A DNA stretch of 64,000 nt from an uncultured Methanosarcinales archaeon (GTDB taxonomy: Archaea > Nanobdellota > Nanobdellia > Woesearchaeales > GW2011-AR9), in contig CAYFMJ010000001.1 of the NCBI GenBank assembly GCA_964344235.1, forward strand, positions 256,001-320,000. The letters run 5' to 3'. The translations under genes and the position numbers were made by a program. Position 1 is the stretch's first letter, and every line of letters begins with the position of its first letter. Shown here one piece after another: positions 12,257-22,433 of this stretch. A model generated the notes under the pieces. It had not been told where the DNA came from. It saw nothing but the letters and a program-made list of their open reading frames with translations, and made no database searches.

Positions 12257-13726
12257 ATGTCCTTAACTAACCTTATTAGTATTTTACGTGTTCTGACCCT
12301 TCCAGCGTTGCTATACTTCTTAGGAAATGATTCGTTATTCTCAACGTTCTGGGCGTTGGTTGTTTTTTTTATTGCAGTCTTAACGGCAGTGGTTGATGAT
12401 ATTCTATTCTATAAACGAGGAAGATCGAAAGTAGGTTCGTTTCTTGATCCATTAGCGGATAAAATTGTCATTGTAGGGATGTTGTTATACTTCGTTTTAC
12501 AAGGAATGTTTGAAGCAGTTTATTTAGTCGTCTTCATTTTACGTGACGTTATTGTTGGTGTTACTCGTTTTGTGGCGAATAGAGATGGCATTATGGTTCG
12601 GGGGAGAAGGTTGTATGTGTTGCTCTTAACATACTCTCTGTTTGCAGTCATTGCGGGGTTGTTGTTGGAACATTTCTTCACATTTGAGGGTTTCACCGTT
12701 GGCGGGAGATTAATCTTTACGCAAACTATTATTCTCTTTTTCACATTTGTGGCGCTTATTGTTGCGTTTATTTCAGTGCTTCATCATTTATTGAGATACA
12801 GCCGAGGTGCTATGCGGCGGAGGCATTACAAAAGAGTTGCAAATAGAAATATGGTGGTGTTGGCGAATAAGCGATCTCGCGGATACCACGATGGGTACAG
12901 AAGAAGATTATTGAAACTGTTTGCCAGACGGCGGAACGCCCCGGTGATGTTTTTTCCCCATACAAGAAATATGTTCAAAGGGTTACGTAACAAAGTAGCC
13001 GGGAAGAATCGTATAGTTATTGCAGGTGGTGACGGATCATTTGAGAGTGCATTGAATTACAAACCGTTTCACAAGAAGACATTGGGATTCTTTCCATTAG
13101 GTGCCGGGAATGCATTCTATTCCCATTTCTACAAGGGTAAACGGTTCGAATATTTACGGTCGAGGTTCCAGTTTCATGAACAAGAATTAGACGTATTAGA
13201 AATGACTTGGGATAAAGGGAAGAGACAGACGTTATTTCTAAATATTGGTGGTGACGCAGAAGTTATGCACCATAGTGTGAAAAGAACACAACATGGATTG
13301 AGAGATTATGTAAAAGCCTGCTGGAAAGTTATAGTGGATGTTCCAGTACAGTATGATTTGAATTGTAGTGTCGATGGGAAAAAGTATAACTGGAAGAACT
13401 CAGTAAGTATGGTATTAGCTAAAGTCCCCTATTTAGGTTTTGGTATACGTTCCATACCCGGTGAAGTTGATTTAGGTGATGGGCAGGTTTATGGTGCTGC
13501 AGTTGTGAATACTCATTCTTCATTTTTTAACAAAGGGATAAGAATTTGGGCTTTATTGTTAGGGATGTTTAACATTGATAAATCACCATTTGTTTTATTA
13601 CAGGGTAAGAAAATTGTTATCAAAAGTAAGCACCCATTTCCAATTCAAGCAGGAGGGGAATTTATTGGGTATAGCAGGTCTCTTTCCGTGAAAGTTGTGA
13701 GGAAGCAGAAAGTATTGATGATTTGA
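12257..13726 (+). CDS. Fusion of CDP-alcohol phosphatidyltransferase-like (PgsA-type) and diacylglycerol-kinase catalytic domains
   Basis: N-terminal NLISILR, GSFLDPLADK and LRD..V in a TM bundle; C-terminal AGGDGS and PLGAGNAF (DAGK/YegS-type motifs). Confidence 0.8.
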   Translation: MSLTNLISILRVLTLPALLYFLGNDSLFSTFWALVVFFIAVLTAVVDDILFYKRGRSKVGSFLDPLADKIVIVGMLLYFVLQGMFEAVYLVVFILRDVIVGVTRFVANRDGIMVRGRRLYVLLLTYSLFAVIAGLLLEHFFTFEGFTVGGRLIFTQTIILFFTFVALIVAFISVLHHLLRYSRGAMRRRHYKRVANRNMVVLANKRSRGYHDGYRRRLLKLFARRRNAPVMFFPHTRNMFKGLRNKVAGKNRIVIAGGDGSFESALNYKPFHKKTLGFFPLGAGNAFYSHFYKGKRFEYLRSRFQFHEQELDVLEMTWDKGKRQTLFLNIGGDAEVMHHSVKRTQHGLRDYVKACWKVIVDVPVQYDLNCSVDGKKYNWKNSVSMVLAKVPYLGFGIRSIPGEVDLGDGQVYGAAVVNTHSSFFNKGIRIWALLLGMFNIDKSPFVLLQGKKIVIKSKHPFPIQAGGEFIGYSRSLSVKVVRKQKVLMI

Positions 13727-13728
13727 AC

Positions 13729-13767
13729 CACTAGCCACTGGACAAGTGCCAATAGGGGTTATAAATC
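13729..13767 (+). promoter_or_regulatory. Conserved LAGLIDADG upstream module, copy 1 (CACTAGCCACTGGACAA-N14-TATAAATC)
   Basis: The 17-bp and 8-bp blocks are identical to 21625-21587 (minus strand) at the same spacing. Confidence 0.8.
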
Positions 13768-13811
13768 CTTTTCTATTACTAAGTGTTCATATTTCTAATT
13801 AATCGGGAAAT

Positions 13812-14546
13812 ATGAAACTTAATAAAATGGAATGTGAAGATTTAGCCTACTGGGTTGGTGTTGCTCAAACTGATGGGTACCATAAAAAATACTTGCCAAA
13901 AAACCAAAATAATGTAACTCATTCCATGGTTCTACATGTGGGGTTCTGTTCAATTCCAATGCTTATTAAATTTAGGGAAATCTCAAGAAGCTTATTCCAA
14001 ATAAAAGGATCGACATATAGTGTTAACGGAAATAATTCCCTCGTCTTTAAATTTGGAATCACTAGGCTTCTTAATTTATTTAATGAACTTGACATTATTT
14101 TCTCCGACCCTCCACAACCACCTTTGTGGGTTATGAAGAATTCAACTTTCTTTGGGGCTTACTTGGCAGGGATTATTGACGGTGATGGGGATGTAAGGAT
14201 AAAACGACCGAGGTATCCTCAATGTGCAATAAGGATTAACTCAGGTTCTCCAGCAAACCATTTGTTAAGTGCAATCAAATCCAAACTTGGGATTGGGGCT
14301 TCACTTTCAACAAATCACCGTGATACGGTCTATCAAGGGAGGAGGATCATTGGACGCTCACATCGGCTCGAGTTTTATGTTTCGTCAAAGAATATTGATT
14401 TCTTTGAGCGATACGTTTTAGACCATTTAGCAATGGGGTACAAGAGGAAGAAAATTAGAGATTATGTCCAGGTCCGCAAAATCACGAAACATTTAAATAA
14501 AAAAATCTGGCTTAACGGAGCTTGCGGCGACCGTCGTATAAACTAA
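13812..14546 (+). CDS. Free-standing two-motif LAGLIDADG endonuclease family protein
   Basis: LAYWVGVAQTDG and GAYLAGIIDGDG motifs; no intein splice residues; not inside an intron. Confidence 0.85.
   Translation: MKLNKMECEDLAYWVGVAQTDGYHKKYLPKNQNNVTHSMVLHVGFCSIPMLIKFREISRSLFQIKGSTYSVNGNNSLVFKFGITRLLNLFNELDIIFSDPPQPPLWVMKNSTFFGAYLAGIIDGDGDVRIKRPRYPQCAIRINSGSPANHLLSAIKSKLGIGASLSTNHRDTVYQGRRIIGRSHRLEFYVSSKNIDFFERYVLDHLAMGYKRKKIRDYVQVRKITKHLNKKIWLNGACGDRRIN
14492..14499 (+). promoter_or_regulatory. TATA box for tRNA-His, inside the LAGLIDADG ORF
   Basis: TTTAAATA 26 nt upstream of the tRNA 5' end. Confidence 0.55.
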
Positions 14547-14640
14547 TCAACAATGTTGTTTAGATACTTTGGTTATTATTCCGGACTGTGGAATACTTTG
14601 CAGTCATCCGGGGACGCGAGTTCAATTCTCGCCGGTCGCC
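14526..14640 (+). tRNA. trnH: tRNA-His(GUG) with two introns (15/16: 14542-14569, 28 nt; 37/38: 14592-14605, 14 nt)
   Basis: Acceptor GCGACCG/CGGTCGC with G-1:C73, T-arm GCGAG-TTCAATT-CTCGC, anticodon stem CCGGA/TCCGG and spliced loop CT-GTG-GA. Both introns form BHB motifs. Confidence 0.88.
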
Positions 14641-14650
14641 CTCTTTTTTT
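14641..14650 (+). terminator. Oligo-T terminator after tRNA-His
   Basis: CTCTTTTTTT immediately after position 73. Confidence 0.55.
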
Positions 14651-14807
14651 ACAAAAGTATTAAATAAAAGCGGTTTTTTCTAGAGGTTATGACAACACAA
14701 ACCAGAGTTGATTGTATTCATTGTTCGCAATGATTTCTCTAGTTGTCAGTCTGTTTTTCTAAATCAAAATCATCATCGGTAGAGCAAATGCTCCACCCAT
14801 TTTTTAT

Positions 14808-14904
14808 GCTTGCGGTAGTGTTAGTGGTGAGCACGCACGACTGTGATGATATTCTTTTTCTTCATAGAACTCGTGAAGCAGGAGTTCGAATCTCCTCCGC
14901 AGGC
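14808..14904 (+). tRNA. trnH: Second tRNA-His(GUG)-like gene with a canonical 37/38 intron (14847-14869, 23 nt)
   Basis: G-1 plus CTTGCGG/CCGCAGG plus C73; D-stem GTGT/GCAC (one extra T); anticodon stem CACGA/TCGTG; BHB with helix CTGT/ATAG and bulges GA^T and AA^C; T-arm AGGAG-TTCGAAT-CTCCT. Confidence 0.75.
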
Positions 14905-14941
14905 CTGAGTCGTCTGGACTTAAAGCAGGGAGATTAAGAAA

Positions 14942-15926
14942 ATGCAAGAACAAACACAAACATCTGAACCAAGAGTTACAGAAGATATTGGAGGTGATTT
15001 ATCTAGCGTGAGCAAGATAGACCAAGATATTCATTGTCGGCATAGATGTATCAAAGAATAAGTATGCGAACTGTCAAATACCCTTAAACCTCTTCATGGG
15101 TTTTGGTTATAACCCGGATTTAGCGAGATTTGGTGAGAGACTTGATATCCTAAACTTTTTCTCTTGGATGAAAAGGCTTCAGAGATCATGGGGTTCCACA
15201 TGGACTATCTTTGATGCGAGCGGTTACGCAATAGTTAACAAAGCTCCACAGAAGAAGATAACGAAATTAGGTAGTAAACCAACGGGAGAACAGATTCTTG
15301 ATGCATTAATAAGTGAACAGGAGAGACCAAAACGGGCAGAAGTAATGAGAAACTGTGAACTGCGATCCCGATACCTACAGAAGTTGGTAAGCGTTGTTGG
15401 AGTCCAGGCTGATTACATTGATTCTCGGGAGGTGTTTAGAAGTTCCCAGCAATATAGAGCAGCATTAGATGTGGCCCTGGAATTTGTAGAGCGTCTAAAA
15501 GCCGAGAGCCCGGATCTTGTCCGTAGACTTTCCCCTCCAAATCCAAACCCTGCCAGCAAGCTGTATCTGCCTCTCGAAGTCGCTGAAGCAATTTACCTGT
15601 GGGAAATTGGAAAAGTGGCAGGAAAATTTGGGCCGACAGCTGAATTATACTTTGATCAAGCAATTCTTGGGGCTTTTGAGGACAACGCTCAACCATACGA
15701 AACATTTCGTTGCCCTTTTGGTCCGAGAAGACCAGGATACTTGAGTGACAGAAACGTAATCTGGACGCGCTCACCTGACTCATTTGTAGAAGAGATTTTA
15801 CAGACTGATTCAGAATATGGTTCTTTTGTTGCTCGGTATTTGGATCCGTTTAGGGAGCAAGGGGAACCGGTTAAAAGTTGTGCCATAAGAATGAGGGATA
15901 AAATGACGCTCATAGAGGTACTTTAA
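14942..15926 (+). CDS. Hypothetical protein with possible class I aaRS/CDPS-like fold; apparent frameshift near 15020 (intact ORF 15096-15926)
   Basis: ATG 14942 follows an SD-like AGGGAG but that frame stops at 15061. The downstream frame is open from 15021. A CAAGATA direct repeat sits at the junction. The fold call is weak inference. Confidence 0.6.
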
Positions 15927-15927
15927 A

Positions 15928-16608
15928 ATGAAAAAGTACAAAACTATGGGCATCCTGGGTGGTATGGGGCCCGAGGCTACTGCTGAACTCTATCTTCGGA
16001 TAGTGAGAATCTTTCAGAGGAAATATGGAGCCAAGTATGATGATGATTTTCCTGAAATTATTATCATCAACTTACCAATTCCCGATGTTGTTGAAGGCTT
16101 TACTGCCGAGCAAGAAATTAAAAAGATGCTTCTTGATGGCGTCAAAAAGCTAGAGGGAGCGGGAGCAGATTTTATTGCTATTCCTTGTAATACCGTTACG
16201 TATTATTTAGATGAGATACAAGAATCTGTTTCAATTCCCCTCTTGAGCATTTTAGAAGAGACTGCTAAAGAAGTTAAGAAGCAGGGCTTTCTAAAAATCG
16301 GTGTTCTTGGTACAGAGTTGACTATCAATAAGAACATTTATGGAGACACTCTTTGTAATGAAGAGCTAATCTACCCTACGCTCGAAGAGCAAAGGGGCAC
16401 TACGAGGGTAATAATGAACATTCTCTCAGGAGAAAAGAAGCTCGAGGATAAATGTTTTTTACTGAGTGTGATTAAAAACCTGAACGTTCGGGGGGCCGAG
16501 AAAGTTATCTTGGGCTGTACAGAGTTACCTCTGTTAGTTAATGGAGGGGATTTTTTTGACACTATTGAAATTCTTGCTAGGGCATGTGTTAGGGAGGTGA
16601 TGCTCTAA
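15928..16608 (+). CDS. Aspartate/glutamate racemase family protein
   Basis: GILGGMGPEAT, IPCNT and GCTELP, carrying both catalytic cysteines. Confidence 0.92.
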   Translation: MKKYKTMGILGGMGPEATAELYLRIVRIFQRKYGAKYDDDFPEIIIINLPIPDVVEGFTAEQEIKKMLLDGVKKLEGAGADFIAIPCNTVTYYLDEIQESVSIPLLSILEETAKEVKKQGFLKIGVLGTELTINKNIYGDTLCNEELIYPTLEEQRGTTRVIMNILSGEKKLEDKCFLLSVIKNLNVRGAEKVILGCTELPLLVNGGDFFDTIEILARACVREVML

Positions 16609-16673
16609 AGCTTTTGTTTTTCGTTCCCACAAAATTATATAAACAATAAAGTAATCATGGAGGATAATATACA

Positions 16674-17948
16674 ATGAAATTACAATTAGCGAAAGGGGTA
16701 GATGACGTTTCTCCGGAAGAGAAGATTCTGAAGAATAAAGTAGTGAATATTATTACGAACACGTTTGAGAGATATGGCTTCGCGCCATTGGAAACTCCTG
16801 CTATTGAGAGATACGAAACACTTGCAGCAAAATATGGGGCGGGTGTAGGGAGTGATGTGCTGAAAGAAACGTTCAAATTAACAGATCAAGGGAAGCGAAA
16901 GCTTGGTTTACGGTTTGAGCTAACGACTTCTTTAGCGAGATATGTGGCAATGAACCCAACGTTAAAGATGCCATTTAAGCGATATGAAGTTGGTAAAGTC
17001 TTCCGAGATGGACCCGTAAAACTGGGCAGGGTACGAGAATTCTGGCAATGTGATGCTGATACGATCGGAACGTCTTCAATGATTGCAGAGGCTGAACAGA
17101 TTGCAATTATTAGTGAAGTATTTACGACGCTTGGTTTTGCATATGTGATTAACATTAATAATAGAAAAATTCTGAATGGGATTTTGAATCAAGCTGGTAT
17201 TGAAAAGAAGAAAGAAGCGATTATTGCCATTGATAAGTTGGATAAAATAGGGGCAGCGGGAGTTAGGGATGAGTTGAAGAAAGAGGGTTATAGTAAAAAG
17301 CAAATTGATGGCGTTTTAGCTCTTGTTTCTAAAAGGATGAGAATAACTGAGTTACGTAAAAAGTTACGTGATGAAGAAGGTGTTGCCGGGTTGAATGAGT
17401 TACGGGAACTACAAACATATTTGAAGAGACTGTGTGTAAAGAATGTGCAATTTGATGTATCGATGGCGAGGGGTCAGGCATATTATACCGGAACGGTGAT
17501 TGAAGCGTTTTTCAAAAAGAGTTCCATTACCTCTTCTATTGCTGGCGGTGGTCGGTATGATGACATGGTTGGTGGTTTTTTGGGAGGAGGTAGAGTTGTT
17601 CCTGCTGTGGGAATTTCGTTTGGTATAACGCCTATTATGGAGCAACTCAAATTGCAGGGGGATGCTTCGGTAAAAACTCCAGCTCGTGTATTGGTGATTC
17701 CTATTAATACTGTTGAGGAATCTTTACAAATTGCCAAACAGTTGCGCGAAGCGAGTGTACCTACAGATTTTGCGTTAGGAAAGAAAGGTGTTTCAAAGAA
17801 TTTACAGTATGCTAATGCACTTGGTATTCCGTATGTTGTGATTGTTGGGCCTGATGAAGTGAAGAAGAACAAGGTGTTATTGCGGGATATGAAAACTGGT
17901 TCTGAAAGTTTGTTGAGTGTTTCGGGAGTGGTGAAGAAATTAGGATGA
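16674..17948 (+). CDS. hisS: Histidyl-tRNA synthetase
   Basis: KGVDD, LETP, GRVREFWQCDAD (motif 2), YYTG, GGGRYD and a C-terminal anticodon-binding domain. Confidence 0.95.
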   Translation: MKLQLAKGVDDVSPEEKILKNKVVNIITNTFERYGFAPLETPAIERYETLAAKYGAGVGSDVLKETFKLTDQGKRKLGLRFELTTSLARYVAMNPTLKMPFKRYEVGKVFRDGPVKLGRVREFWQCDADTIGTSSMIAEAEQIAIISEVFTTLGFAYVININNRKILNGILNQAGIEKKKEAIIAIDKLDKIGAAGVRDELKKEGYSKKQIDGVLALVSKRMRITELRKKLRDEEGVAGLNELRELQTYLKRLCVKNVQFDVSMARGQAYYTGTVIEAFFKKSSITSSIAGGGRYDDMVGGFLGGGRVVPAVGISFGITPIMEQLKLQGDASVKTPARVLVIPINTVEESLQIAKQLREASVPTDFALGKKGVSKNLQYANALGIPYVVIVGPDEVKKNKVLLRDMKTGSESLLSVSGVVKKLG

Positions 17949-18112
17949 ATCAGCAACAGAAATTAAAAGCGATCGGATATGTGTTCCTACTTATTTTAGT
18001 GTTAAATTTAGTGTTATTTGCGTTGAAGTTAATTACGACAATTGTGTTCTGGGCGATTATTTTAGTGGGTGCGTTGTTTGTGTATAAGATTCTCCCAAGG
18101 TTAAAGAAGTGA
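17945..18112 (+). CDS. Small two-TM membrane protein (55 aa)
   Basis: Not in the track. ATGA overlaps the hisS stop; MNQQQKLKAIGYVFLLILVLNLVLFALKLITTIVFWAIILVGALFVYKILPRLKK. Confidence 0.7.
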   Translation: MNQQQKLKAIGYVFLLILVLNLVLFALKLITTIVFWAIILVGALFVYKILPRLKK

Positions 18113-18158
18113 TTTTTTGTGGGATAAATATTTAATTAGGCACTAGTTTTCTCGCTAT

Positions 18159-18950
18159 ATGATCCGTGAAGAAAGATTGCTTGCTGTACAACGATGGCTT
18201 CAAAGCTATCCTGAAGTAATTTCTTTTCAAGAATGGAGCGGCCAACAATCTGTCCCTCTTGATAGGTTAGCATCAGCGATTAGACAAGCAGAAATAAATG
18301 GGATTATTGAGCCAGGACAAAGCTGTATTGATTTGGGGTCGAGCGTTGGAAATGCTGTTTTTCTCTTTGCTGCTGCGGGTTACTCTACGACGGGGTATGA
18401 GCTCTCAGAAGAGGCGATTACTATTGCACGTGAAAGAGGTGAATTGATACTTGAAGCAGAAGAGAGAGGCTTAGAGGTTGCAGAATTTTCATTTTTTCAT
18501 CAAAGTTATTTTCCGAGGGAATATATTGATTTTAGGAGTAGTGGTGATTCTTTAGCGGTAAGATTAGAGGCTGAGATCGAGGGGGGTTTAGTCTTTGACA
18601 AGCCGGGGGTGATAACTCCTGAACAGCTCGCTCATTACGACATTTTTTACACATTTCCATACGATGTGCAGATGCCTTCTATATTTGAACTGTTTGATTT
18701 ATATGCTAATGATGATGCAGTTTTGTTTGCTATAGAACATCAGAAAGATCATGTTGTTTATGATGCTCTTCGTGCATTTGGTGGTAGGGTCGTTCGTTTC
18801 TGCGACCCTGATATATTTGCAGGAGATAAAACAGCACAGGCTGAGATTCAGAAAAAAGCTGCCAAATTTGTGTGGCATAATCTCCGTTGTTATGTTAAGA
18901 AAGATTTTGACTATTCGAAAGCGGAAGAACGCGCCTTAAGATTGTTATAA
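18159..18950 (+). CDS. Class I SAM-dependent methyltransferase domain protein
   Basis: CIDLGSSVGN motif I followed by TGYELS motif II. Confidence 0.7.
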   Translation: MIREERLLAVQRWLQSYPEVISFQEWSGQQSVPLDRLASAIRQAEINGIIEPGQSCIDLGSSVGNAVFLFAAAGYSTTGYELSEEAITIARERGELILEAEERGLEVAEFSFFHQSYFPREYIDFRSSGDSLAVRLEAEIEGGLVFDKPGVITPEQLAHYDIFYTFPYDVQMPSIFELFDLYANDDAVLFAIEHQKDHVVYDALRAFGGRVVRFCDPDIFAGDKTAQAEIQKKAAKFVWHNLRCYVKKDFDYSKAEERALRLL

Positions 18951-18958
18951 TTCGGAAT

Positions 18959-19870
18959 TCACCATTCATCATCTTCATGTCGTGTGTAGACCGTACAGCC
19001 GTCTTTTGTTACAATCATAGAATGTTCAAATTGCGCTACCATCCCGCCAGACACTTCTACCAATGGAGGGTATTCTTTCACAATACCAGAGCGGATGAGC
19101 TCTCGTAAACCAAGTGCAGTTGTTCCTTTACCAAATTTGCGGGTAAGCCAGCGGGTGGTGAATGGTAGACCATTCAGTGGTTTTACGAAGTCAAGAATTT
19201 TACGTGCATGAGGGGAACGAACACCTTTCTCTTTCTCTACCATAAAGATGGTTGCTTTCCCCTGCTCTTTAATCATCCCCTGGCCGTCTGTGACGAATGG
19301 TTCAATGGCAATTTGCCAGTTTTCTTGAAGCGTTGTTTGATTTTTGCTGTCAAATGATGGAATGGAAACGCCAGCATGCACAATATATGGTTCGATTGTA
19401 TGGCCAGATAGGTTTTTTACAGTTGTTAGGTTATGATTTTCTGCTTCTGTGATTTGGGCTTTGCCTAATTCTGTTATTTTAACCCCCGCTTGTACTTTTT
19501 CAATTGCTGCTTTCAACGCGTTTTGTGATGCTTTGATTAAATCAGCATGTTTGTTAGTGTTACCAACTTCAACCGTCATTGCATTATCTGCGATGTAGCC
19601 ATCAATGTGGACTCCAATGTCTATCTTTACGAGGTCGCCTTCTTTAAGCGTAGTAGTGTCATCCTCTTCAGGGCAGAAGTGGGCAGCGGTATCGTTGATG
19701 GCCATTTGAGCCCAGGCTATTTGGCCGCCTAGTTCGATGATGCGGTTTTCGCAGAAATCCATGACTTCTAAACAGCTAGCTCCTGGAATGAACTTAGCGG
19801 CGCCTTCTCTTCGTACCTGTGCAGCTACTTTTCCCGCTTTAAGGATTTTGTTAAGCGTTTCTTGGTTCAT
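18959..19870 (-). CDS. map: Methionine aminopeptidase type II
   Basis: AAHF, DIGVHIDGYIAD, GH, EPF and QFEH metal ligands plus the archaeal-type insertion. Confidence 0.95.
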   Translation of the reverse strand: MNQETLNKILKAGKVAAQVRREGAAKFIPGASCLEVMDFCENRIIELGGQIAWAQMAINDTAAHFCPEEDDTTTLKEGDLVKIDIGVHIDGYIADNAMTVEVGNTNKHADLIKASQNALKAAIEKVQAGVKITELGKAQITEAENHNLTTVKNLSGHTIEPYIVHAGVSIPSFDSKNQTTLQENWQIAIEPFVTDGQGMIKEQGKATIFMVEKEKGVRSPHARKILDFVKPLNGLPFTTRWLTRKFGKGTTALGLRELIRSGIVKEYPPLVEVSGGMVAQFEHSMIVTKDGCTVYTRHEDDEW

Positions 19871-19905
19871 TAATGAGTAGAATTGAGTCGGAATTATAAA
19901 AGTGT

Positions 19906-20688
19906 TTATGGAAAGAGGTGATGATATAGTTGTTGTGCTTTTACATACATGTCTCTAGGATTATCTACGGCAATAAAGTCAACTACGGGAATAACGGAAG
20001 AGTCATTACCTTCTGGGTCGTCTCCGAAATAGACGATTCCATCAAGGCTAGTATGTAATTGTTCGCTGAGGTATTTCGCAGCGGTTCCTTTGTCGTGAGG
20101 AGTTATGTCAATAGTAGAGGAGCCACCGGGTTCGATATTGCCCCTAAGGCTTTGTGTTGCGAATCTCTGCTGCAATTGGGTGGACCATGCTCGCCTTCTT
20201 GCTTTCTCTGGGTCAAATTGATTTTTTAGATCTCTCGGAGCATTATGGCCAAGAAAGGCTACTTGAAAACCATAACCGTTTGTGATTTGTTGCCCGTAGG
20301 CTGACTCCTCCGAAAAGCCGTTCTCGTCAAGAAATGAACGTGCTACTTGTTGTATGTATCTTCTTTCTTCTGCAGTGAACCCTGCGTCATATATTGGTTC
20401 TAGTCCGTCGGGACCATATGCAATGCACACTGCCCCATTGTTTGGGAGAATATAGTGGAAAATTGGGGGGGTTGCGGCAAGAAGTGGTTCGGTCACTGTT
20501 GCTTGGAGGTAGCGTGTGTTTCTACCGCTAATGAATGCGAATGGAACGTCGTGGTTTGAGAATTTTCTGATAAGTTCTATTACTTCTGGAGAGAGTGGGT
20601 GGTCTCGCTCAGCAGCACAGTGGTCGACGTCAGTTAATATGATTTGTTTTGGAGTTCTAACGTCTTCTACTCGCTCTACACGTGCCAT
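19906..20688 (-). CDS. HAD-superfamily IIB hydrolase (phosphomannomutase-like)
   Basis: TDVDH motif I, SGR motif II, DKG and GDD..GND motif IV. Start moved to ATG 20688 because the track's extension overlaps the 5S rRNA. Confidence 0.8.
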   Translation of the reverse strand: MARVERVEDVRTPKQIILTDVDHCAAERDHPLSPEVIELIRKFSNHDVPFAFISGRNTRYLQATVTEPLLAATPPIFHYILPNNGAVCIAYGPDGLEPIYDAGFTAEERRYIQQVARSFLDENGFSEESAYGQQITNGYGFQVAFLGHNAPRDLKNQFDPEKARRRAWSTQLQQRFATQSLRGNIEPGGSSTIDITPHDKGTAAKYLSEQLHTSLDGIVYFGDDPEGNDSSVIPVVDFIAVDNPRDMYVKAQQLYHHLFP

Positions 20689-20743
20689 CTTCTCTTTTTG
20701 GGTTGTTGTTCTCTTAAACAGAATTAAAGAAATAACCATAATC

Positions 20744-20751
20744 TTTATAAA
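20744..20751 (+). promoter_or_regulatory. TATA box for 5S rRNA
   Basis: AATC-TTTATAAA ~21 nt upstream of the 5S 5' end. Confidence 0.6.
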
Positions 20752-20772
20752 TAGATGCGGGGGTGAATGTGA

Positions 20773-20883
20773 TGGACGGCCAGAGGGATGGAAATCACCT
20801 AGACTCGTTTCGAACCTAGAAGTTAAGGCCATTTCCGTGTTGGAGTGTACTGCATTTTGTGGGAAATCCGACAAGCTGTCCCC
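20773..20883 (+). rRNA. rrf: 5S ribosomal RNA, stand-alone
   Basis: Helix I GGACGGC/GCTGTCC, loop C TTTCGAAC, conserved GAAGTTAAG, loop E GTACT...GGGAAA; followed by a TTATTTTTT terminator. Confidence 0.88.
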
Positions 20884-21572
20884 TTATTTTTTAGTGAGAT
20901 GCTTGCTAATTTCTTCTTTAGTTCTCTGAACTGGTCTTCATTTCGCGCTGTTGCGGCATAACTTTCAATAATTAAGTTAGTAACTCTCTTTTTTCTTGGG
21001 TGTTTAAATCCAATTTTCTCCCTAAAAGCAATGAAATTCTCCTTTCCAGTTATAGATAATAGAAAGCTCTGGTCCCTTTTGCTTGATCTATGGTTTCTTA
21101 TTATTTTGTTTGACCTTATCCCCAAATTGAGTAGAACCTGCTTGACTTGAGATAGGATTTTATAGGAATTGGAGGAAAGAGTAATGTTCCTTTTCCATTC
21201 GTTAGTTTTTCTATTTAGTCTTAGGGCGGCACATCCCTCATCATCATAAAAAGTACGAAGAAACTCTCTTAACATTCTGTCCGATTCTAAGAACGCTTTA
21301 GGGATACTGATGTTGTGGCTGTTGTAACTTTGTAGATACTTTTTCAAGTGATTGACTATATGCTTGCCGTATACTGCCACATATGGTGTTCCACTGTTCA
21401 TTTTGCCTCCGGACATTCCAGGATTACCAAATTGATTTTTTATATCCAACTTAAACTCTTCAATCAGTGTAGGGCAAGTGTTGAAATACATGATTTGTCG
21501 GTCTGATAAATGGCCATCCCCGCAAATTCTCGCGACAATTCTTACTAGTTGCATCTCTTTCATCCGTAACAT
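20823..21572 (-). CDS. Free-standing two-motif LAGLIDADG endonuclease family protein
   Basis: IVARICGDG and FLRTFYDDEG motifs, L..LGI.S, and C-terminal IGF.HPRK. The start may be ATG 21563. Confidence 0.85.
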   Translation of the reverse strand: MLRMKEMQLVRIVARICGDGHLSDRQIMYFNTCPTLIEEFKLDIKNQFGNPGMSGGKMNSGTPYVAVYGKHIVNHLKKYLQSYNSHNISIPKAFLESDRMLREFLRTFYDDEGCAALRLNRKTNEWKRNITLSSNSYKILSQVKQVLLNLGIRSNKIIRNHRSSKRDQSFLLSITGKENFIAFREKIGFKHPRKKRVTNLIIESYAATARNEDQFRELKKKLASISLKNKGTACRISHKMQYTPTRKWP

Positions 21573-21586
21573 TTGGGGGTATACTT

Positions 21587-21625
21587 GATTTATATTTTCT
21601 ACCTATGGTTGTCCAGTGGCTAGTG
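21587..21625 (-). promoter_or_regulatory. Conserved LAGLIDADG upstream module, copy 2
   Basis: The reverse complement reads CACTAGCCACTGGACAA-N14-TATAAATC, identical to 13729-13767. Confidence 0.8.
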
Positions 21626-21692
21626 CCTTGGGCTAATTATTATCTATCTTCCATAAGCCTTTTAAACGATTCTTGGGCTATTTTGTGTATAG

Positions 21693-22433
21693 ATGAAAGC
21701 AATTATTCTTGCAGGTGGCTATGGTACGAGGTTAGGTGAAATCACTAAAGAGAAAGCAAAACAGCTGCTGAAAGTAGGGGACAAATTTCTTATTGATTAT
21801 GTTGTAGAGAAAGTTCTTGCATTACCTGAAGTGAGTGATGTGTTTATTGTGACAAATGCCAAATTCTATGTTGATTTTTATGAATGGTTTCATGGTAAAC
21901 AGCTTGACAAAGTGAAAGTACTTAATGATGGGACGTGGACGAAAGAGGAACGGCTAGGTTCAGTTGGGGATTTGCAGTTTGTTATTGACAAAGAAACAAT
22001 TGATGATGATTTGTTAGTTGTTGGTGGAGATAATTTGTTTGAGGACAATCTAGATACGTTTCTGGAATTCTTTAAGAGGAAAGGTTCAGCAATTATGGTA
22101 CATGATGTGCAATCGCTTGAAACGGCGAAGCAGTTAGGGGTTGTTGAAGTTGGTGAAGGAGATAAAATTATTTCTTTTGTTGAGAAGCCAGAGCATCCTG
22201 CATCGACGTTAGCTTCAACATTGATTTATGGTATTAGGAAAGAGCACTTACCGTTGATTAAAGAAGCTATTGCGGCAGGATTTCATGATCGAGCAGGAGA
22301 TTTCATTAAGTTTCTTTCTGAGAGAGAACCGATGTTTGCGTTGCCTCTTTCAGGAAGATGGTTTGATATTGGAACTGTTGAACAATTAGAGTTAGCTAAT
22401 ACTGTGTACGGGGAGAGGAACAATGAACATTAG
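21693..22433 (+). CDS. Sugar-phosphate nucleotidyltransferase
   Basis: AIILAGGYGTRL, GGDNL, FVEKP and WFDIGT motifs. Confidence 0.9.
   Translation: MKAIILAGGYGTRLGEITKEKAKQLLKVGDKFLIDYVVEKVLALPEVSDVFIVTNAKFYVDFYEWFHGKQLDKVKVLNDGTWTKEERLGSVGDLQFVIDKETIDDDLLVVGGDNLFEDNLDTFLEFFKRKGSAIMVHDVQSLETAKQLGVVEVGEGDKIISFVEKPEHPASTLASTLIYGIRKEHLPLIKEAIAAGFHDRAGDFIKFLSEREPMFALPLSGRWFDIGTVEQLELANTVYGERNNEH

Follow-up and report, generated by a model that had tools for sequence, protein, structure and literature searches.

A shared promoter module in front of two LAGLIDADG genes

The window analysed here, a 64,000-nt stretch of DNA (C1:256001-320000), belongs to a 1.19-Mb archaeal genome (96% complete; genome code G000) whose closest database proteins are named Candidatus Woesearchaeota. 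It harbors two free-standing LAGLIDADG homing-endonuclease genes on opposite strands, gene 1 at a tRNA-His gene and gene 2 at a 5S rRNA gene, each preceded by the same 17-nt element (the 17-mer, CACTAGCCACTGGACAA) and a TATA box. An earlier note on this DNA proposed the 17-mer to be either an operator that defines a LAGLIDADG regulon, possibly bound by the nucleases themselves, or the left end of a mobile cassette. The features of the two loci are as follows (BRE, transcription factor B recognition element).

12257..13726 (+): PgsA-like/diacylglycerol (DAG)-kinase fusion gene, left flank of cassette 1
13727..13770 (+): promoter module copy 1, 44 nt, with operator-like units, BRE-like TAG(G) and TATA box; weight matrix 44-45 bits, against 13 for the best non-member
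13729..13745 (+): 17-mer, putative operator core, copy 1; tandem CCACTAG / CCACTGG units plus ACAA
13760..13767 (+): TATA box TATAAATC, copy 1, 14 nt after the 17-mer
13812..14546 (+): LAGLIDADG gene 1, 244 aa, two motifs (D21, D125)
14526..14640 (+): tRNA-His (GUG) with introns, read from the sequence; 5' end overlapped by gene 1
20772..20884 (+): 5S rRNA gene (Rfam RF00001, 51.7 bits)
20823..21572 (-): LAGLIDADG gene 2, 249 aa, motifs GDG19 and DDEG112 (PF14528, 55.8 bits)
21584..21627 (-): promoter module copy 2, 44 nt; weight matrix 50.7-51.6 bits
21587..21594 (-): TATA box TATAAATC, copy 2
21609..21625 (-): 17-mer, putative operator core, copy 2
21693..22433 (+): nucleotidyl-transferase gene, right flank of cassette 2

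Inspection of both loci confirmed the arrangement on which the note was built: the 17-mers at 13729-13745 (+) and 21609-21625 (-) agree in 17 of 17 positions, and exactly 14 nt separate each from an identical TATAAATC (13760-13767 and 21594-21587, respectively). Allowing for up to three mismatches, the window contains these two copies, as compared to 0.10 expected by chance, and the genome contains 21, as compared to three for the reversed motif that served as control in our word scans. A weight matrix trained on clear copies of the module then returned 25 ungapped 44-nt sites in the genome, all of the form CCACTnCCCACTnGACAA-N14-TATA and scoring 35-58 bits, while the best non-member site reached 13 bits. 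The consensus, nCCACTnCCCACTnGACAACnACnGGTAGAnnTTATAAA, carries 49 bits of information in total. Three direct CCAC-type units, spaced 7 and 11 nt from start to start, are combined in it with a BRE-like TAGA and, exactly 14 nt after the 17-mer, a TATA box close to consensus. Module copy 1 begins one base past the stop codon of the upstream gene.

Within this family, the perfect identity of the window pair is unremarkable, because both sites are members of a 25-site family and form an average pair: over the whole module they agree in 28 of 44 positions, which equals the family mean (rank 170 of 300 pairs), and 8 of the 300 pairs share an identical 17-mer (3.9 expected from column frequencies). 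Being an average pair also rules out a recent duplication of the two sites, and the proteins indeed share little, as the note had stated (BLASTP E=1.1). Two further ideas about the 17-mer were discarded. The imperfect palindrome described previously, GGCAC...GTGCC, is a composite of the left flank of one copy and the right flank of the other and occurs in neither; no flank complementarity was seen across the 25 members, whose conserved pattern consists of direct repeats. Likewise, a tRNA-fragment or split-tRNA origin was entertained in view of the D-arm-like reverse complement, but neither ARAGORN nor Rfam reported a tRNA at the two sites, and every copy of the element is oriented towards a TATA box.

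Genes behind the module, in this genome and across the order

To define the gene set, LAGLIDADG genes of the genome were sought with the profiles PF14528, PF00961 and PF03161. These genome-wide scans, combined with site inspection, found the module in front of all 12 free-standing LAGLIDADG genes and returned none without it, whereas the two LAGLIDADG copies inside long open reading frames (ORFs), i.e. inteins, lack it. The enrichment that the earlier note proposed to test is borne out (hypergeometric P about 1e-22, assuming about 1300 genes). Ten of the downstream proteins matched a LAGLIDADG profile, two of them weakly. Two more, one with a weak match to a LAGLIDADG profile and one with a C-terminal helix-turn-helix (HTH), begin with an LAxxxGDG-type N-terminus. 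Extra HTH domains are present in three LAGLIDADG family members of the genome.

The remaining 13 of the 25 sites precede other genes. Among them are radA (Rad51, E=1e-80), with a conserved 85-aa gene between it and the module, hef (helicase plus ERCC4), lhr, radC, an HRDC/zinc-ribbon gene, a DUF4186 gene, two genes for XerA-type recombinases, a conserved 42-aa ORF, two serine-type tRNA-like RNAs and a few genes of no assigned function. The idea of an operator thus stands as far as a regulatory site at fixed distance from the TATA box and its presence at 12 of 12 LAGLIDADG genes are concerned, but not as far as specificity for these genes is claimed. A regulon confined to LAGLIDADG genes is contradicted by the module in front of radA, hef and lhr at orthologous positions, as described below. 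Rather than being private to the two window nucleases, the module would mark an SOS-like gene network.

At 11 of the 25 sites, 20-22 nt separate the TATA box from the start codon, a distance that agrees with leaderless archaeal mRNAs; gene 2, too, is probably leaderless. Leaderless genes and a near-consensus TATA box with a BRE-like stretch are also what one would expect if the module were simply a strong constitutive promoter common to unrelated genes and devoid of a dedicated regulator. We regard this as highly improbable. The module occurs at only 25 sites, none of them at the highly expressed thermosome gene encoded in the window, and the gene set is functionally coherent. Moreover, the ~27 conserved positions upstream of BRE and TATA would be superfluous for basal archaeal initiation, and the drift of the box between lineages at a constant TATA distance (see below) is that of a co-evolving factor and site.

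Conservation was assessed in 40 related genomes, each representing its own genus, and in 200 other genomes of the order. The strict box was found in 13 of the 40 genomes, each of another genus, as compared to one match for the reversed control. Its targets there again include hef, lhr, the 85-aa/radA operon, Xer recombinases and LAGLIDADG genes, with radA, hef and lhr carrying the module at orthologous positions. Additional targets encode a DinD equivalog as well as Bro-N, KilA-N, ORF6N-like and cytosine methyltransferase-like proteins, the last two labels being based on N-terminal sequence only. Comparing hef promoters across 28 genera, we found the canonical box in about seven and tandem variants (ACTGGTCAA x2, GTGGACAA x2 or ACTAGACAA x2) at unchanged TATA distance in about nine. 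At the level of the order, CCACTNGACAA-N13-15-TWTAWA was present in 38 of the 200 genomes, spanning at least 30 families (two matches for the control), and the spacing between box and TATA was almost always exactly 14. A box whose sequence drifts while its distance to the TATA box is held is as predicted for a regulator-operator pair beside the pre-initiation complex.

Several observations accompany these genes. The DinD equivalog (DNA damage-inducible protein D, NF008573, E=1e-96) lies behind the module in archaeal genome G021 (L055:261-1058). In G004 (L118), hef has no such box but, 90 nt upstream, a different tandem repeat (ACAAAAGTGTCT, twice), which may represent a replaced operator in that genus. 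In some genera hef resides in ~1300-aa open frames, consistent in size with intein insertions, and in others the hef match is split in two (L136 in G018, L143 in G024, L138-L142). The 85-aa protein upstream of radA matched nothing in Pfam, PHROGs or NCBIfam. Its AlphaFold model (pLDDT, the predicted local distance difference test, 82) contains four strands and a helix but resembles known structures only weakly at best (Foldseek E=0.28 to bacterial Pur-alpha; VIA-align Z<5), leaving the label 'PC4-like' unconfirmed.

The two tRNA-like RNAs (L017, G000:C2:7300-8500; L018, G000:C3:48800-52400) begin ~27 nt after the TATA box of the module, one copy of which contains a 17-mer with one mismatch, CGCTAGCCACTGGACAA. 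Both sequences are serine-type with GAC/GAU-type anticodon loops and start at the D arm, without the 5' acceptor strand. The one on C3 is placed between module and lhr; in relatives, lhr directly follows the module. Finally, a stable hairpin is predicted (z -2.3 to -5.1) for four further LAGLIDADG leaders of the genome (L020:300-352(+), L020:2535-2589(-), L025:329-390(+) and L012:399-462(+)) and for the leader of a 64%-identical orthologue of gene 1 (L151:190-250(+)); it is absent from both window genes. In this hairpin an upstream AUCACUC pairs with the Shine-Dalgarno sequence GAGGUGAU, while the stem sequence varies among copies. The leader hairpins would constitute a second, translational layer of control.

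Empty and filled sites at tRNA-His and 5S rRNA

Gene 1 is intercalated between the PgsA-like/DAG-kinase gene and tRNA-His, with its last ~57 nt overrunning the TATA box and 5' end of the tRNA gene. The latter was recognized by its acceptor halves (GGCGACC / GGTCGCC), CTGTGGA anticodon loop and T arm. It was called by neither ARAGORN nor Rfam, apparently because of its introns, and at orthologous loci the tools do call tRNA-His genes in the corresponding place. A second tRNA with GUG anticodon and a 25-nt intron follows ~170 nt after the first (window 14809-14904; Rfam, 42 bits). As suggested by the earlier note, we compared empty and filled sites in relatives, and empty sites were found at both loci. 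In G021, G002 and G044, about 10-20 nt lie between the PgsA-like/DAG-kinase stop codon and the TATA box of tRNA-His with its tRNA, whereas 763 nt, made up of module, leader and most of the ORF, are intercalated here. Seventy-four homologues of gene 1 were found (best, 64% identity), and four of the five loci examined (our own and three of four homologue loci: L151, L152 and L153, the last in a different wider context) place the gene directly 5' of tRNA-His.

The same PgsA-DAGK/tRNA-His junction holds another module-bearing LAGLIDADG gene in G014 (L074:3386-4453), whose 3' end likewise overlaps the tRNA. It was rejected as an orthologue of gene 1 (BLASTP E=8.5), and such genes seem to have landed repeatedly at the 5' flank of tRNA-His. 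Beside the PgsA-DAGK orthologue of G019, Rfam reported an RT-16 RNA (56.7 bits, gathering score 50; L072:3200-3385).

Gene 2 runs convergently into the 5S rRNA gene, its last 20 codons lying antisense over the 3' 62 nt of the latter. In G023, G042, G045 and G046, 100-195 nt separate 5S from the nucleotidyl-transferase gene; the gap of 809 nt at the filled site in our genome accommodates gene 2 and the module on the opposite strand. Among 45 homologues (best, 66% identity), the family was found at the 3' end of 5S, in convergent orientation, at five of five loci examined (our own and four homologue loci), two of them with other flanking genes. Upstream of the four homologues, three carry a variant of the box plus TATA and the fourth a partial, weak box. 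In the 65-nt spacer that extends from the outer edge of module copy 2 to the nucleotidyl-transferase start codon, a 12-nt direct repeat, CTTGGGCTAATT / CTTGGGCTATTT, occurs at window 21627-21638 and 21672-21683; it is not a target duplication, since the repeat lies wholly on one side of the cassette and outside it.

Each nuclease is encoded by an ORF of its own, equipped with a separate TATA box and located between a protein gene and an RNA gene, not within an intron or intein, and for both families the same site is occupied across genomes and empty in others. The match of gene 2 to PF14528 is clear (55.8 bits; cut-off 22.5), whereas gene 1 scores close to the threshold (21.7 bits for the protein, 22.7 when the genome was scanned; I-AniI E=0.003). 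The motifs VAQTDG (D21) and IIDGDG (D125) of gene 1 are invariant in 30 homologues, and ICGDG (D19) and YDDEG (E112) of gene 2 in 27, from which both enzymes are predicted to be catalytically intact. No HTH was detected in either by Pfam. Divergence tracks that of neighboring genes: gene 2 orthologues are 51-60% identical, as compared to 37-45% and 46-61% for the flanking genes. Given this, and with the closest homologues found being only 66% (gene 2) and 64% (gene 1) identical, recent transfer is not seen. Both genes appear to be old, intact, site-specific free-standing LAGLIDADG genes with a double motif. Their invariant catalytic residues, neighbor-like conservation and fixed sites argue against decaying insertions as well as against WhiA-like regulators.

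These findings bear on two other explanations of the module. A mobile LAGLIDADG cassette could have the module as its conserved 5' end; the module would then travel with the endonuclease gene and be needed for mobility, not for host regulation. At both loci, the module does form the outer 5' edge of a ~750-800-nt unit that is absent from related genera, which bears out this part of the note's cassette proposal; orthologous cassettes elsewhere also begin with box and TATA, and the unrelated gene in G014 carries the module at the very same junction. However, we found no terminal or partner repeat, target duplication or second end around either cassette. The module also sits in front of core genes: in many genera it is found at orthologous positions ahead of the radA operon, hef and lhr. 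In addition, gene 2 orthologues diverge like their neighbors. We consider this explanation unlikely.

Alternatively, the 17-mer might be bound by the LAGLIDADG proteins themselves, as in WhiA-like regulation or I-TevI-like autoregulation, giving rise to a regulon run by LAGLIDADG proteins. LAGLIDADG proteins recognize sites of about 20 bp, 12 of the 25 module sites precede LAGLIDADG genes, and three family members in the genome have extra HTH domains. Yet 12 highly divergent proteins, the window pair among them, would all have to read one box. That box is composed of direct repeats, not a pseudo-palindrome, and is found at core repair genes across the order. Nothing points to self-binding by the window nucleases, which are mutually unrelated and, unlike WhiA, belong to families that keep invariant catalytic residues and have no HTH. 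Such self-binding is, in our view, very unlikely.

A putative recombination/repair regulon and its known counterparts

We thus consider it probable that the 17-mer is the operator-like part of a rigid 44-nt promoter that serves a recombination/repair regulon, and that resident homing-endonuclease cassettes carry this module. A sequence-specific regulator would bind the CCAC-type units next to TFB/TBP and co-control the 85-aa gene together with radA, hef, lhr, radC, the HRDC gene, DUF4186 and the XerA-type recombinases, presumably in response to DNA damage or replication stress. The module would be a host element that also marks the 5' edge of each inserted unit, and each window nuclease gene would use it as its own promoter. 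A nuclease gene placed on a host repair module would have its product made along with the recombination machinery. As to the direction of control, a site directly upstream of BRE and TATA at rigid spacing fits an activator touching TFB/TBP; the near-consensus TATA box fits a repressor occluding the BRE.

Several points weigh against a regulon of this kind. The DNA-damage theme is drawn entirely from gene content, the DinD equivalog and the XerA/integron-type recombinases included. The near-consensus TATA box is as compatible with activation as with repression, and about 12 of the 28 hef promoters lack a recognizable box. Both candidate regulators were rejected. A truncated TFB paralogue (L155:266-964 = G000:C1:404868-405563, minus strand; 232 aa, zinc ribbon plus one cyclin repeat), considered as a TFB3-like factor, cannot run a family-wide box because only 2 of the 31 genomes of the family were found to have it. 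An Orc1-2-like paralogue was dismissed, the genome having one Orc1/Cdc6 (Cdc6_C-bearing) gene.

More tentatively, the regulon could extend across this order of DPANN (Woesearchaeota-type) archaea as an SOS-like recombination/repair programme into which all free-standing homing-endonuclease genes, XerA/integron-type recombinases, phage-type Bro-N/KilA-N genes and odd tRNA-like RNAs are wired. If so, cleavage by the endonucleases beside tRNA-His, 5S rRNA and other stable-RNA genes would be restricted to times of raised RadA, Hef and Lhr levels, implying either a selfish timing strategy or a domesticated start of gene conversion. Being slaved to the host recombination programme would explain why a dozen intact homing endonucleases can be tolerated in a genome of 1.2 Mb. 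The module would predict the regulon by sequence alone in hundreds of uncultured genomes and could serve as bait for its regulator, while the fixed pairing of the nuclease families with their tRNA-His and 5S rRNA flanks provides concrete substrates for cleavage assays. To our knowledge, no transcriptional DNA-damage or recombination network has been established in archaea outside the Sulfolobales, nor has one been established for DPANN archaea, which cannot yet be handled genetically. Full-text literature searches, including for the literal motif, found no published description of the module. New here are the comparison of empty and filled sites at both loci, the fixed tRNA-His and 5S rRNA pairing of the nuclease families, the N14 spacing across the order, the rejection of the TFB paralogue as regulator and the finding that 17/17 identity is ordinary within the family.

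With respect to known systems, autorepression by the homing endonuclease I-TevI and the domestication of WhiA exemplify homing-endonuclease-type proteins acting on promoters, a model of the kind raised in the earlier note. WhiA is a LAGLIDADG transcription factor that has lost its catalytic residues and carries a C-terminal HTH (PMC10243135). In contrast, the window nucleases keep catalytic residues and have no HTH, and the box is common to many non-endonuclease genes. Nor does the module resemble the terminal repeat of a mobile element, such as an insertion sequence or miniature inverted-repeat transposable element end or an attC-like site, as no repeat pairs it with the 3' end of either cassette.

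The free-standing homing-endonuclease genes of T4-like phages (seg and mob, e.g. mobE; PMC2790892) offer a second parallel. Like these, the window genes lie outside introns and inteins, between conserved genes, with their own promoter and with presence or absence at the same site. Unlike seg and mob, which are of the GIY-YIG or HNH type, they are LAGLIDADG genes on a cellular archaeal chromosome and abut stable-RNA genes; their promoter would be a host repair-regulon module, and, judging by their orthologues, they appear to be old and to have been inherited vertically rather than recently mobile.

Among published systems, the closest is the DNA-damage-responsive element of Sulfolobales, 5'-ANTTTC-3', which is bound by Orc1-2, a non-initiator paralogue, and acts with TFB3 (PMC6061795, PMC5817253, PMC6101594). 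Both elements are short, non-palindromic, located just upstream of the core promoter, common to DNA-transaction genes and conserved between related species. Still, the module is unrelated in sequence, and with about 44 nt, 49 bits and exact N14 spacing it is much longer and less flexible. The consensus differs and the genome has one Cdc6_C-bearing gene, that is, a single Orc1/Cdc6, and the truncated TFB paralogue is not common to relatives. Whereas the Sulfolobales response involves pili and DNA import, the genes here center on radA, hef, lhr and selfish nucleases, and the lineage is DPANN.

The bacterial SOS regulon, defined by the LexA box, has selfish elements wired into it, among them prophages, integron integrases and dinD. 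Our putative regulon differs in its archaeal promoter architecture, its direct-repeat operator and its selfish clients, which are homing-endonuclease genes, and no LexA-type regulator was identified. What the two have in common is a single operator-like element shared by a recombinase gene, repair helicases, a DinD equivalog, XerA/integron-integrase-type recombinases and Bro-N/KilA-N genes, and, with it, selfish genes that would be plugged into a host repair network.

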